Shown: positions 58,659 to 63,346 of the stretch, piece after piece
Layout of the letters: the number at the start of each line of letters is the position of its first letter
Numbering within the stretch: position 1 is the stretch's first letter
Assembly (NCBI GenBank): GCA_964566225.1
Contig: CAZMHV010000003.1
Location: 91,151 to 155,150 of the forward strand
Reading direction: 5' to 3'
Origin: an uncultured Gammaproteobacteria bacterium
GTDB lineage: Bacteria; Patescibacteriota; Patescibacteriia; Magasanikbacterales; UBA922
Length of the DNA: 64,000 nt
Program-made: the position numbers and the translations under genes
Notes under the pieces: model-generated
What the model was told of the DNA's origin: nothing
The model's database searches: none
The model's input: the letters and a program-made list of their open reading frames with translations, nothing else

Positions 58659-60206
58659 GTGAAAAATAATTTCATAACTATGGAACCAAAATACTTTCAA
58701 GATGAAGATGCCTGGATGCTCGGTGAAGATATCCCAAATGCTGATTTATTTTTTTCCAATATTTGGCTGAATGGTTTTGTGAGTTTTTTTGATAAAAATG
58801 TTGGCAAGGCGTACAAAAAGATTTTGTGTAAGTATGAAGGGTATCACTTGTGGTTTTATTTTGGTGAAAAAGATTCTTTTGAAGTAGCCGAATATATTGC
58901 CGAGCGAATTGTTCATGAAGCAGGCTATGCGGCTGAGGTGAATAAAAATATTATGCTTGAAGCAGACAAGCTTCGAAATTTTAGTGAAACGATTCCTCAA
59001 ACCAATCTTGACTCTCTCCCCAATGAAGAATTGTGGAGAATTTATGAAACACACAATACTATTCATAGTGAGTACTATACTTGGTGTTGGATTCCTGTGG
59101 CAGTGGACATGTTTCACAACAACTTAACCAAAAGAGTAAAAGAATACTTGCTTTCCCTCGGTGTTTCAGCAGAAAATCTCAATGAATATTTTATTACACT
59201 CACTCAACCCACAGAAAAATCTCTTATTTTTATTGAGCAAGAAGATTTACTCAAAATTGTGCAGGAGGTCCAAAAAGATGTTGAGGCAGTTGAATTGTTC
59301 AAAACAGAATCTCTACAAAATATTTTTGAGAGGCTTTCTTTACCTTTACAAAACCTCATTACTGAACATTGGAAAAAGTATTATTACACCAAGCATTTAT
59401 GGGTGAGTGGAGAGTATACCGTTGAAGAGTATTTGCATCAAATCAAAGATGTTCTCCTGAGTGCAGAGTCTGCTACTATAATTTTGGCAAAACAATATCA
59501 AGAACTCGAAAAAGCGAAACAAAAGAGACTCGCACTTATTGAACAGTTACACATTGAAGGCCAATGGCGAACGGTTCTCGATGAATTCGGGGCATTTATG
59601 GTGACCAAAATTTATCGTCGCTATGCACAGCTTTTGGCTGTTCATCACATGTCACCAATTTTGAAAGAAATAGCGAGACGAAAATTTTTGACCGAAAAAC
59701 AAGTTCGTTTTTTGCGAGTTCCTGAAGTGAAAGAATTATTGCTGAATGATAACTACAGTGAGCAAGAGTTACTCGAGCGTACCAAAATGTGTGTGTACTA
59801 TGCAGAAAAGAATTTTGAACATGTAATGATTCGTGAAGAGGCAAGTGAATATATGAAATCTGTAGAAAAAGAAATTGATACCAGCATTACCGAGCTTCGT
59901 GGTGAAAGTGCATGTATTGGTTATGCCAAGGGCGTGGTGAAAATTATTATTCGTGCCGAAGATATGCAAAAAATGAACGAGGGAGATATTCTTGTTTCTA
60001 TTGCCACTGACCCAGATATTGTTCCTGCCATGAAAAAGGCTGCTGGAATTGTAACTGAGCAAGGTGGTGTCACTTCCCATGCTGCGATTGTTTCACGCGA
60101 GTTAGGGATTCCTTGTGTGATTGGTACTAAAATTGCAACAAAAATTTTAAAGGATGGGGATGTTGTGGAAGTGGATGCAACGAAAGGTATTATTAAAAAA
60201 ATATAA
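58659..60206 (+). CDS. Protein with a large unknown N-terminal domain and a C-terminal PEP-utilizing-enzyme mobile (phosphohistidine swivel) domain
   Basis: C-terminal [50 protein letters not shown] matches the swivel-His consensus of PPDK, PEP synthase and rifampin phosphotransferase. GTG start. Confidence 0.7.
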   Translation: [515 protein letters not shown]

Positions 60207-60233
60207 TTATACTTACAATATACGTATTTCTGT

Positions 60234-61304
60234 ATGACAAAAAAATACGACACGCACCGACGTGAATATACTATCCTTGGTATCACGGCTGTCATCGAAG
60301 CCATGGTGAGTGATATTACACACAAAGTTTATCAGGGTACCTTTCCTGAATTGTTTTCTCTTGTCGTTGATGGTGTGTATTATCACTCTCTGCCTGTGAC
60401 CGGTCGAGAACAGGCAAGTCGGTTGGTGGTGAAGAGTTTTCAAGAGAAGTCCATTGACTTGTCTGCCATGTATGAAATTTTTGATGCAGAAGTGACCAAG
60501 TATGAACAGCTTATCGATCTTCCCGAAGAACAGTTTTCCTTACAGACCATTTTAGACTTTTTTTCTTTTTATAAAGAATTATTTCCGACCGCGTATGTAG
60601 GAATGGATCCAATTGATTTCACTGATACTTTATCTCCGCAAGAAAAAGAAGAATTTTTTGACTGGGCTACCAAAATTCGTCATCGTGGTGAAGTTATTTA
60701 CAAAAGAGGAGAAATGGAATTTATTCCACGCTATTTGGCTTGGTTTGCCAAACATCACGCTTCTCTGTATCGTGTAGATCACTTACTCTACTTAGTGTGT
60801 ACTGAAATGGAAAATTTTGTGCAGAAAAATGCACCACTTCCAACACCTGAGGAACTTGAACAAAGAAAAAAAGTGTTGTATGTCCATCAATATCCACCTG
60901 GTAAGATTGAATTTTATTTTGGTGAGCAAGCTCAAAAAATGATTGATCAAAAAGAATTTTTTAAAAAAGAAGTTGACCACACCGTAAATGAAGTAAAAGG
61001 TCAAGTTGGTTACCGAGGAATTGTCACTGGAAAAGTATGTATTGTCACCAGTCGTGCTGACATGAATAAATTTCAAGACGGTGATATTATTGTTTCCGAA
61101 ATGACTGATCCGAGTTATTTGCCAATTATGAAACGAGCGCTTGCGTTTGTGACTGACGAAGGTGGAATGCTCTGTCATGCTGCCATTGTGGCTCGCGAGT
61201 TGCAAAAGCCTTGTGTGATTGGAACCAAACATGCTACAAAGGTTTTTCATGATGGTGACATGATCGAAGTGAATGCAGAGCAGGGGACGGTGAAAAAAAT
61301 ATAA
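60234..61304 (+). CDS. Paralog of the preceding gene: a shorter unknown N-terminal domain plus a C-terminal PEP-utilizing-enzyme mobile (phosphohistidine) domain
   Basis: C-terminal GDIIVSEMTDPSYLPIMKRALAFVTDEGGMLCHAAIVARELQKPCVIGTK. Confidence 0.7.
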   Translation: MTKKYDTHRREYTILGITAVIEAMVSDITHKVYQGTFPELFSLVVDGVYYHSLPVTGREQASRLVVKSFQEKSIDLSAMYEIFDAEVTKYEQLIDLPEEQFSLQTILDFFSFYKELFPTAYVGMDPIDFTDTLSPQEKEEFFDWATKIRHRGEVIYKRGEMEFIPRYLAWFAKHHASLYRVDHLLYLVCTEMENFVQKNAPLPTPEELEQRKKVLYVHQYPPGKIEFYFGEQAQKMIDQKEFFKKEVDHTVNEVKGQVGYRGIVTGKVCIVTSRADMNKFQDGDIIVSEMTDPSYLPIMKRALAFVTDEGGMLCHAAIVARELQKPCVIGTKHATKVFHDGDMIEVNAEQGTVKKI

Positions 61305-62071: not shown

Positions 62072-62362
62072 GATGGGATCTCCTTGGCAAGGGACGGAGT
62101 AGTTGATTGGCCCGTCCACGATTGCTCACCAGGTAAAATTATTTTTACAGGGTGAGCAACTGTGGACCAGGCTTTTCTCTCAGGTTAATAAGCCAAATTG
62201 TAACGAACCGCAGTATGGTTATTTATAAAAAATCGCTAAAATAAGCAATTTTTATACAACTTTTACCATAACGGTAGAGTGTATCAAAAAATGTTGCTTT
62301 TGTCAATGTATTTGCTGTATACTAAGCCATATAACTGACTGAACTTTTTAATCATTCTGACT

Positions 62363-63346
62363 ATGCCACACCTCAAATTTTTCAAAGAAATCAACAAAGA
62401 CGACGTTGCTATTGCCGGTGGCAAAGGCGCGTCTCTTGGTGAAATGTCTCAAGCCGGAATTCCCGTCCCACCTGGCTGTGTTGTTTTGGCCAATGCCTTT
62501 GATCGGTTCATTGAAGAAACAGAACTCAAAGAAGAAATTGCCGCGCGTATCAAAGAGGTGAATCCTGAAGATACTGCGACCATTGATCGTGCGAGTAAAA
62601 TCCTTCGTGATGTTATCAACGACACTCCGATGCCAGAAGACCTCACCCAAGAAATCCTAGCCGCCTTCGACGAACTGAGCGCCGACCACGTCGCCGTTCG
62701 CTCCAGTGCTACTGCCGAAGATTCATCGATTGCCAGTTGGGCAGGAGAACTTGAAACCTACTTGAACACAACTCGTGACAATGTCATTGAACGCGTCAAA
62801 CACTGTTGGTCATCGCTCTTCACTCCACGTGCGATTTTTTATCGCTATGAAAAAAATTTGCACGACAGTTATGTGTCAGTAGCAGTAGTGATTCAAAAAA
62901 TGGTTCAGTCCGAAATTTCTGGTGTGGCATTTACGGTTCACCCCGTGACCGAAGACCCCAATCAAATGATTCTGGAAGCTGGTTATGGACTCGGAGAGGC
63001 GATTGTGAGTGGGCAAGTGACGCCAGATAGTTACATTATTAGTAAAACAGATATGATGATCATGGATATTCACATTGGTCATCAGAATAAAAAGTTAGTG
63101 CGTGCGCATGCTGAAGCCGAAAAGCAGGGGACACCAGACGAAGAGAACACGAAAAATATGTGGATTGACCTGCATCAAGAAGAAGGGGAAAAACAAAAAC
63201 TTACTGGCAGACAAATTATTGAGCTGGCCACCCTCTGCAAACGTATTGAGGATCACTATGGATTTCCTTGTGATATTGAATGGGCTTTTGAACAAGGCAA
63301 ATTTTACATTACGCAAAGTCGACCTATCACTACCCTCAAAAAATAA
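62363..63346 (+). CDS. Stand-alone PEP/pyruvate-binding ATP-grasp domain protein (PPDK_N, as in the N-terminal ATP-binding domain of PEP synthase and rifampin phosphotransferase)
   Basis: N-terminal VAIAGGKGASLGEMSQAGIPVPPGCVVLANAF and later VAVRSSATAEDSSIASWAGE. No swivel or TIM-barrel domains are attached. Confidence 0.75.
   Translation: MPHLKFFKEINKDDVAIAGGKGASLGEMSQAGIPVPPGCVVLANAFDRFIEETELKEEIAARIKEVNPEDTATIDRASKILRDVINDTPMPEDLTQEILAAFDELSADHVAVRSSATAEDSSIASWAGELETYLNTTRDNVIERVKHCWSSLFTPRAIFYRYEKNLHDSYVSVAVVIQKMVQSEISGVAFTVHPVTEDPNQMILEAGYGLGEAIVSGQVTPDSYIISKTDMMIMDIHIGHQNKKLVRAHAEAEKQGTPDEENTKNMWIDLHQEEGEKQKLTGRQIIELATLCKRIEDHYGFPCDIEWAFEQGKFYITQSRPITTLKK

Follow-up and report, generated by a model that had tools for sequence, protein, structure and literature searches.

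Genes of the cluster and their predicted folds

We analyzed a 64,000-nucleotide stretch of DNA (the window; positions 91,151 to 155,150 of contig CAZMHV010000003.1) containing three plus-strand genes, A, B, and C, that form a candidate split small-molecule dikinase. The original prediction had described them as a rifampin phosphotransferase (RPH)-like enzyme distributed over separate proteins, and all three open reading frames (ORFs), of 515, 356, and 327 amino acids (aa), were found in place with the motifs it had quoted (Table 1). Database gene calls (P0001) start gene A at an ATG at position 58680, giving a 508-aa protein, and this is the probable start. The closest homologs of the window proteins are annotated as Candidatus Magasanikbacteria and other Candidate Phyla Radiation (CPR)/Patescibacteria; judging by these names, the source is most likely a CPR bacterium.

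Calls with both expected domain hidden Markov models (HMMs) succeeded. Pfam returned a sole match for each of A and B, to the swivel family PF00391 (PEP-utilizers; residues 440-510 of A, E = 1.8e-27; residues 280-351 of B, E = 2.3e-26), and matched C to PF01326 (PPDK_N; profile positions 3-313 of 328, E = 8e-99). These E-values exclude chance matches for all three proteins, and the calls bear out the expectation that A and B end in a swivel domain with a catalytic histidine and that C consists of PPDK_N alone. C aligned to the ATP-grasp domains of phosphoenolpyruvate (PEP) synthase and RPH. It also matched, over its full length, PDB entry 9goj_A (387 aa, titled “PEP synthase”), which we take to be the stand-alone ATP-grasp subunit of a two-component dikinase. 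All three proteins scored far under the NCBIfam cut-offs of PEP synthase, pyruvate phosphate dikinase (PPDK), RPH, PigC/RedH, and Enzyme I of the phosphotransferase system (PTS). For the RPH equivalog NF041857, the bit scores were 73.5 (A), 65.2 (B), and 285.7 (C) against a cut-off of 999, and for the PEP synthase model TIGR01418 they were 122.7, 113.7, and 339.7 against 739.75.

The swivels of A and B are clearly related, with 50% identity across the C-terminal 113 aa, and the catalytic motifs of both (TEQGGVTSH in A, TDEGGMLCH in B) fit the pattern T/SxxGGxxxH. His467 of A is invariant across 60 homologs, and the corresponding histidine is kept in 7/7 full-length B-family sequences. Two residues before it, B has a leucine where PEP synthase has a threonine, a position that is regulatory in that enzyme.

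The N-terminal domains were harder to place. BLASTP detected no similarity between that of A and that of B, and Pfam, NCBIfam, and PADLOC assigned them to no family, the only alignment being a partial one with the last part of the RPH central domain. A PDB sequence search with A and B produced matches confined to the swivel. NCBIfam PRK08296, which presumably represents PpsA-like proteins, aligned to the swivel region alone (residues 391-513 of A and 243-355 of B) and far under its cut-off, and neither the PRK08296 nor the PRK06241 models recognized the N-terminal domains outside that region. Because sequence searches gave no family, assigning a fold to these domains needed structure prediction. 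AlphaFold models built from homolog alignments were confident for both A (predicted local distance difference test score, pLDDT, 93; predicted template modeling score 0.90) and B (pLDDT 90.5). In these predicted structures, both N-terminal domains have the fold of the RPH substrate-binding domain, and the remaining strong structural matches cover only the ~100-residue swivel. Neither domain includes a nucleotide-binding domain, by Pfam or in the predicted structures, which speaks against A and B being complete enzymes by themselves.

Judged from these models, the two N-terminal domains are very divergent versions of one fold, shortened in B. The earlier description of them as different and unassigned was therefore right with respect to sequence families and pairwise similarity, but it did not anticipate the shared RPH fold. 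Since the binding domains are so different, A and B should differ in substrate.

The two acceptor genes contrast in conservation. A shares 40-83% identity with homologs from both CPR bacteria and DPANN archaea, 52 columns are invariant in an alignment of 60 sequences, and an exhaustive phmmer search of 1.84 billion cluster representatives returned 658 representatives of the A type at E <= 1e-3. The B type is rare and fast-evolving; a homolog search with its N-terminal domain found only 8 proteins. Similarity between B and the 357-aa protein in the matching syntenic slot of a related locus (L001) was undetectable, and B therefore offered no clue to its substrate.

We also considered whether A, B, and C could be functionless, decaying fragments of a once-fused RPH-like gene. 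Module loss does occur in this lineage, as the window array has two modules whereas L001 has five and L090 has three plus a 105-aa fragment. Still, none of the three ORFs is truncated, their folds are predicted completely and with confidence (pLDDT 90-93), the catalytic motifs have been preserved, A is conserved to the degree given above, and the stand-alone architecture recurs in dozens of species. C in particular is kept as a stand-alone ORF in 17 related loci, and this recurrence rules out the idea that it is a pseudogene fragment. Decay is thus almost certainly the wrong explanation and is effectively refuted by conservation.

The 105-aa fragment of L090 (13172-13489, plus strand) is a swivel-only gene directly upstream of the ATP-grasp gene and could either be left over from a lost module or act as a free phosphocarrier.

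Table 1. Positions of the features discussed, in the window unless another locus (L) is named.
Feature	Position	Strand	Description
Gene A, acceptor subunit 1	58659..60206	+	Longest ORF 515 aa, GTG start
Gene A, RPH-type substrate-binding domain	about 58680-59880	+	
Gene A, C-terminal phosphohistidine swivel domain	about 59976-60188	+	
Gene A, codon of predicted catalytic His	60078..60080	+	His474 in the 515-aa ORF = His467 in the 508-aa protein
Gene B, acceptor subunit 2	60234..61304	+	356 aa; shortened RPH-type substrate-binding domain and C-terminal swivel
Gene B, swivel domain	about 61071-61286	+	
Gene B, codon of predicted catalytic His	61176..61178	+	His315, in motif TDEGGMLCHAAIVARE
Gene C, stand-alone ATP-grasp (PPDK_N) subunit	62363..63346	+	327 aa; predicted ATP-binding phosphodonor for A and B
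Histidine-phosphatase-superfamily gene	61460..62119	-	ORF 219 aa; PF00300, E = 2.2e-8, 34.4 bits (cut-off 21.7)
Terminator-like hairpin	61307..61338	.	13 bp, A/T runs on either side; between the stops of B and the convergent phosphatase gene
Promoter-like site upstream of phosphatase gene	62306-62278	-	
GC-rich ORF directly upstream of A	57711..58388	-	225 aa, 56% GC, third-position GC (GC3) 69%
Example ORF in GC-rich island	46784-47350	-	188 aa, GC3 0.88
TrwB/TraG-like gene	53359-55170	+	
TrwB/TraG-like gene in relatives	L001 3313-5487; L007 5501-7519; L090 3477-5294		
His_Phos-like gene in relatives	L001 12734-13363; L090 11892-13028; L091 4634-5404	-	
Misplaced public gene calls	L088 9300-9767; L090 11252-11851, 12063-12929; L091 4586-5377		In GC-rich segment
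L039 fusion (Woesearchaeota metagenome-assembled genome, contig JAFGGS010000004.1)	473-11758	+	Uninterrupted 3761 aa, N-terminal PPDK_N and eight PEP-utilizers
L047 fusion (Nanoarchaeota)	4691-10750		2019 aa, one ATP-grasp and four modules

Predicted acceptors and donors in related loci

To place the window in context, we sampled the loci of A and B homologs plus 80 loci from species-representative genomes, and all ORFs of these loci were scanned with HMMs for swivel, ATP-grasp, and phosphatase domains. Swivel-only genes were present in 47 related CPR and DPANN loci, in tandem arrays of 1-10 genes. Exactly one stand-alone ATP-grasp gene was found in 17 of these loci, and none of the 47 had two. 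The ratio of acceptors to donors is 2:1 in the window and rises in relatives to 4:1 (L003), 5:1 (L001, L014, and L034), 7:1 (L040 and L041), 9:1 (L053), and 10:1 (L023). The tripartite arrangement itself recurs, as L091 lines up A, B, a GC-rich gene, and C exactly as the window does. In 16 of the 17 loci the ATP-grasp gene and the array share a strand, and in 10 the distance from the ATP-grasp gene to an acceptor gene is no more than 70 bp.

In five independent fusions, a single polypeptide carries one ATP-grasp along with two (L016, L031, and L046), four (L047), or eight (L039) acceptor modules, and in the largest of these the GGxxxH motif is intact in 8/8 modules of substrate domain plus swivel. 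A further protein (P0151, 819 aa) combines an ATP-grasp with an A-type module. These fusion proteins are the strongest evidence for one donor serving several acceptors. C shares 54-69% identity with the array-adjacent stand-alone ATP-grasps and the ATP-grasp domains of the multi-module fusions, whereas its identity to ATP-grasps from canonical PEP synthases of comparable organisms is only 37-45%. Within nine arrays, moreover, swivels averaged 49-59% identity and N-terminal domains 21-24%, the pattern expected if every swivel docks on one donor. Locus counts, fusions, the identities of C, and the different divergence of swivels and N-terminal domains all support a shared ATP-binding module. The proposal that one ATP-grasp would be shared by two substrate-domain/swivel proteins thereby gained support, from loci with ratios of 2-10:1 and from fusions of 2-8 modules.

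The modules of an array are not recent tandem duplicates. When 176 modules from the fetched loci were clustered at 28-30% identity, they fell into roughly 100 clusters, with the modules of one array mostly in separate clusters, and we therefore regard the arrays as sets of very different acceptor domains. For most modules, the ~100 clusters also rule out a fixed orthologous set per array, which would have implied the same substrates everywhere. The A-type N-terminal domain is unusually conserved, and only the A type recurs widely. In very small genomes, the arrays occupy as much as about 15 kb. Several array-bearing records of metagenome-assembled genomes (L017, L018, L023, L008, L035, and others) are titled “uncultured Gammaproteobacteria”, “Methanosarcinales”, or “Pseudomonadales”; these taxon names are probably unreliable placeholders and unfit for inferring distribution.

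From this comparison, we consider it likely that A, B, and C make up a split RPH-type small-molecule dikinase with one donor and two acceptors. The window would be a small (2:1) case of an arrangement that appears common in CPR bacteria and DPANN archaea. Taking the steps from RPH, PpsAB, and HpeHI (PMC12167813), we infer that C would bind ATP and that the swivel of A or B would dock on C, where its histidine (His467/474 of A or His315 of B) would take the beta-phosphate with release of AMP and Pi. The swivel would then return to its own N-terminal domain and phosphorylate the bound small molecule, most likely at a hydroxyl. A phosphatase encoded in the gap between B and C would probably act on the phosphorylated products or reset the phosphohistidine.

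Several points weigh against this reading. For these CPR and DPANN families, the case is built solely from comparative genomics. Thirty of the 47 loci had no stand-alone ATP-grasp gene within the fetched DNA, many of them being ended by contig ends, and we assumed that the partner is located elsewhere in those genomes. A second PPDK_N gene may sit outside the 64 kb of the source genome seen here. C is probably transcribed alone because a convergent gene and a terminator-like hairpin separate it from A and B. Distant relatives of the A N-terminal domain elsewhere each have their own fused ATP-grasp, so that one ATP-grasp per acceptor is also a viable design. Finally, clustering of the neighboring ORFs in 53 loci revealed no conserved pathway partner pointing to a substrate.

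Some of these points would also fit a scheme in which C is not the common donor. A and B would instead be charged directly by PEP or by some enzyme with its gene in another part of the genome, for example a canonical PEP synthase or PPDK, whereas C would serve one or neither of them and its nearness would be coincidental. About two thirds of the related loci lack an ATP-grasp near the array, C is apparently a separate transcription unit, and canonical PEP synthases are found in many CPR and DPANN genomes (loci L049-L086). However, the fused ATP-grasps of the five one-donor, multi-acceptor fusions are the closest kin of C, and the strand and spacing of the stand-alone ATP-grasp genes tie them to the arrays. 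No PEP-binding domain is associated with the arrays either: Pfam called no PEP/pyruvate-binding TIM-barrel domain in A, B, or C, and none was present in the array clusters scanned. We therefore find a donor other than C unlikely.

The neighbors and fusions of the arrays hint only broadly at a substrate. In the clustering of neighbors from the 53 loci, no family occurred in more than five loci, and the top ones were HAD, HIT, His_Phos_1, and HD; this rules out a defined operon partner and leaves a loose association with phosphohydrolases. His_Phos_1 genes were near arrays in about eleven loci (the window, L001, L090, L091, L023, L053, L031, L048, L007, L015, and L028), HAD in five, HIT in four, and HD in three plus L090, with NUDIX, low-molecular-weight phosphatase, and metallophosphatase genes in single loci. 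One array adjoins transketolase and PGI (L003), another transketolase, 6PGL, and G6PD (L005), and in single cases arrays adjoin purine genes or adenylate kinase.

Distant relatives of the A N-terminal domain (23-27% identity) have a permuted order, with the ATP-grasp C-terminal to the swivel. Their architectures include N-domain-swivel-PPDK_N (about 770 aa), the same with HD added, and PNP_UDP_1-N-domain-swivel-PPDK_N-HD (P0182, P0274, and P0197, the last a 1325-aa protein with all five domains). Another relative joins N-domain and swivel to HAD (P0176), and P0186 and P0270 are also among those fused to PNP_UDP_1, HD, or HAD. Going by these fusions and neighbors (HD, HAD, HIT, NUDIX, and PNP_UDP_1), the small molecules involved may be phosphorylated or nucleoside- or sugar-like and may lose their phosphate at a later stage, but the hint is weak.

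The absence of a conserved metabolic partner beside the arrays would also suit a reading in which the acceptors are proteins, with A and B acting as regulatory histidine kinases or phosphocarriers charged by C, like VadK of Mycobacterium tuberculosis or Enzyme I. The recurrent histidine-phosphatase-superfamily neighbor could then be a phosphohistidine phosphatase, for which SixA provides a precedent. Swivel-domain proteins of the PTS do act on proteins. VadK is itself a PPDK-derived autophosphorylating regulator (PMC13400623). Against this, the fold of the N-terminal domains of A and B is that of the small-molecule-binding domain of RPH, unlike the domains with which Enzyme I or PPDK binds HPr or PEP. 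Neither the ORF list nor the Pfam scan showed an HPr-like gene in the cluster. In addition, the characterized enzymes with this domain pair (RPH, PpsA, CreH, and HpeH) all phosphorylate small molecules (PMC12167813). Protein acceptors are thus quite improbable.

We also put forward, as a doubtful extension of the split small-molecule dikinase, a hub-and-spoke system across CPR bacteria and DPANN archaea. One ATP-grasp would charge a changeable set of up to ten pocket-bearing swivel modules that, in these ultra-small symbionts, trap or activate metabolites scavenged from hosts (such as nucleosides, ribose phosphates, sugars, or cofactor precursors). The modules would replace conventional kinases missing from the reduced genomes, and phosphatases (His_Phos_1, HAD, and HD) would close the cycles.

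The GC-rich predicted phosphatase gene and the surrounding DNA

The original prediction placed C about 1 kb downstream of B. This distance holds, at 1,058 bp, but the gap is not empty, as a minus-strand histidine-phosphatase-superfamily gene that had been overlooked occupies it. Its product belongs to branch 1 of the superfamily, with a PF00300 match above the gathering score, an RHG-type motif (ARHGAH) near the N-terminus, and, further on, an HG-type motif (VFHGG) that would supply the C-terminal catalytic histidine. Translation probably starts at Met17 (position 62071), which yields a 203-aa protein. Judging by its position and family, the product is probably an accessory phosphatase of the dikinase system. 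The gene is 65% GC with a GC3 of 87% in a window of about 41% GC, and GC-rich minus-strand His_Phos-like ORFs hold the matching position in L001, L090, and L091. Between the gene and B, the 61307-61338 hairpin looks like a terminator on both strands, judged by consensus match only.

In all four loci the gene has a peculiar composition: its GC content is 61-66%, against 40-44% for the genomes, and its GC3 reaches 87% in the window and L091 and 78% in L090. The encoded proteins can scarcely be aligned among the four loci (phmmer E 1e-8 to 0.01), whereas the flanking proteins are 40-69% identical, and just two close homologs were found in 5.8 billion proteins. It is puzzling that the gene keeps its high GC while the protein diverges. 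Public gene calls in the GC-rich segment are antisense or out-of-frame ORFs with GC3 close to overall GC and no Pfam match; the His_Phos-like gene is probably under-annotated in databases, with the opposite-strand frame missed. The segment 61380-62180 has a predicted RNA folding energy far under that of dinucleotide shuffles (z = -7.6 on the plus and -6.2 on the minus strand, from 20 shuffles only and possibly inflated by mixed composition), and a long near-perfect hairpin lies at about 62120-62175.

Directly upstream of A is another GC-rich minus-strand ORF, at 57711-58388, which is flanked by promoter-like and terminator-like sites and is called as a gene in L088 and L089. It matched no Pfam family above threshold, the sole hint being His_Phos_1 at E = 0.24, and its membership in the dikinase system is uncertain. 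Besides the phosphatase segment, the window has four GC-rich islands of 600-900 bp and 55-66% GC, at ~6500-7200, ~24700-25300, ~46500-47200, and ~57400-58200, the last being that of the 57711-58388 ORF. In each island there is a short ORF whose GC3 is coding-like and which matches no Pfam family. The GC-rich ORFs do not form one paralogous family, as phmmer with filters off showed no kinship among them. Rfam matched only two tRNAs in the window and no family in the GC-rich islands.

Other neighbors in the window are a type IV secretion system coupling protein, a TPR membrane protein, FtsZ, and NrdR. The dikinase cluster ends at C, since ftsZ and nrdR come next downstream. In the window and three relatives, the array is closely preceded by the TrwB/TraG-like coupling-protein gene, an arrangement that probably reflects lineage synteny rather than a functional link. 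No PADLOC defense model matched.

Comparison with known systems

Our literature search, which left most subscription journals outside its reach, found no description of such CPR and DPANN arrays or of a multi-acceptor stoichiometry, and a Saccharibacteria transposon-sequencing paper with its supplements contained no relevant term. The claim that a split two-substrate arrangement is not a described system therefore needs dividing. The split itself is known from the two-component RPH-type dikinases phenylphosphate synthase PpsAB, CreHI, and HpeHI (PMC12167813), while many acceptors on one donor appears to be undescribed.

The split RPH-type dikinases characterized so far are one-to-one pairs in aromatic degradation. 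If one ATP-grasp does serve many acceptors, this would be a seemingly undescribed modular design for kinases, found mainly in CPR bacteria and DPANN archaea, two groups with a poorly understood metabolism. The substrate domains, which number in the hundreds and are highly divergent, would in that case be a large and unexplored source of small-molecule phosphotransferases. Such a source would be relevant to what the symbionts obtain from their hosts or protect themselves against there, to unrecognized modification of antibiotics or xenobiotics, and to biocatalysis. A, B, and C, three small soluble proteins, allow a direct test of the system.

The closest parallels are PpsAB, CreHI, and HpeHI, each of which pairs an ATP-grasp subunit with a subunit that consists of an RPH-like substrate-binding domain and, after it, a swivel (PMC12167813). 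In HpeHI, the catalytic histidine is essential, the acceptor subunit alone moves phosphate between substrates, and the subunits act in trans without a stable complex (PMC12167813). Similarly, C is a separate ATP-grasp subunit of the same class of about 35-40 kDa, and A and B each have an RPH-like substrate-binding domain and then a C-terminal swivel with the histidine of the T/SxxGGxxxH motif, which was defined for HpeH, CreH, PpsA, and RPH (PMC12167813). In contrast to the one acceptor per donor of the described systems, the window has two and its relatives up to ten. PpsAB, CreHI, and HpeHI sit in aromatic-catabolism operons with carboxylases, whereas the window cluster has no catabolic context and none is conserved in the 53 loci. 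The PpsA, CreH, and HpeH acceptor subunits are about 45% identical to one another. The N-terminal domains of A and B escape the PRK08296 and PRK06241 models outside the swivel region. The host here is most likely a CPR bacterium.

Single-chain enzymes are more distant in architecture. RPH, and by NCBIfam naming also PigC/RedH, is one polypeptide with one acceptor site, compared with three genes and two acceptor sites here, and the RPH order of ATP-grasp, rifampin-binding domain, and swivel in a single chain is not that of A, B, and C. PEP synthase and PPDK have an ATP-grasp and a swivel homologous to those of C and of A and B, respectively, but their swivel directly follows the ATP-grasp and they have a PEP/pyruvate-binding TIM barrel; in the window, the swivel follows an RPH-type domain and there is no barrel. 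The permuted relatives of A (P0182, P0274, and P0197) share an A-like substrate domain, a swivel, and an ATP-grasp with the window system, yet they are single-chain, one-to-one proteins with a C-terminal ATP-grasp and fused hydrolase or nucleoside-phosphorylase domains. By analogy only, the arrangement resembles the PTS, in which one phosphodonor (Enzyme I/HPr) serves many substrate-specific acceptors (Enzyme II) and the swivel histidine domain is homologous. The PTS, however, uses PEP, protein-to-protein relays, and membrane transporters, all of which are absent from the window cluster.

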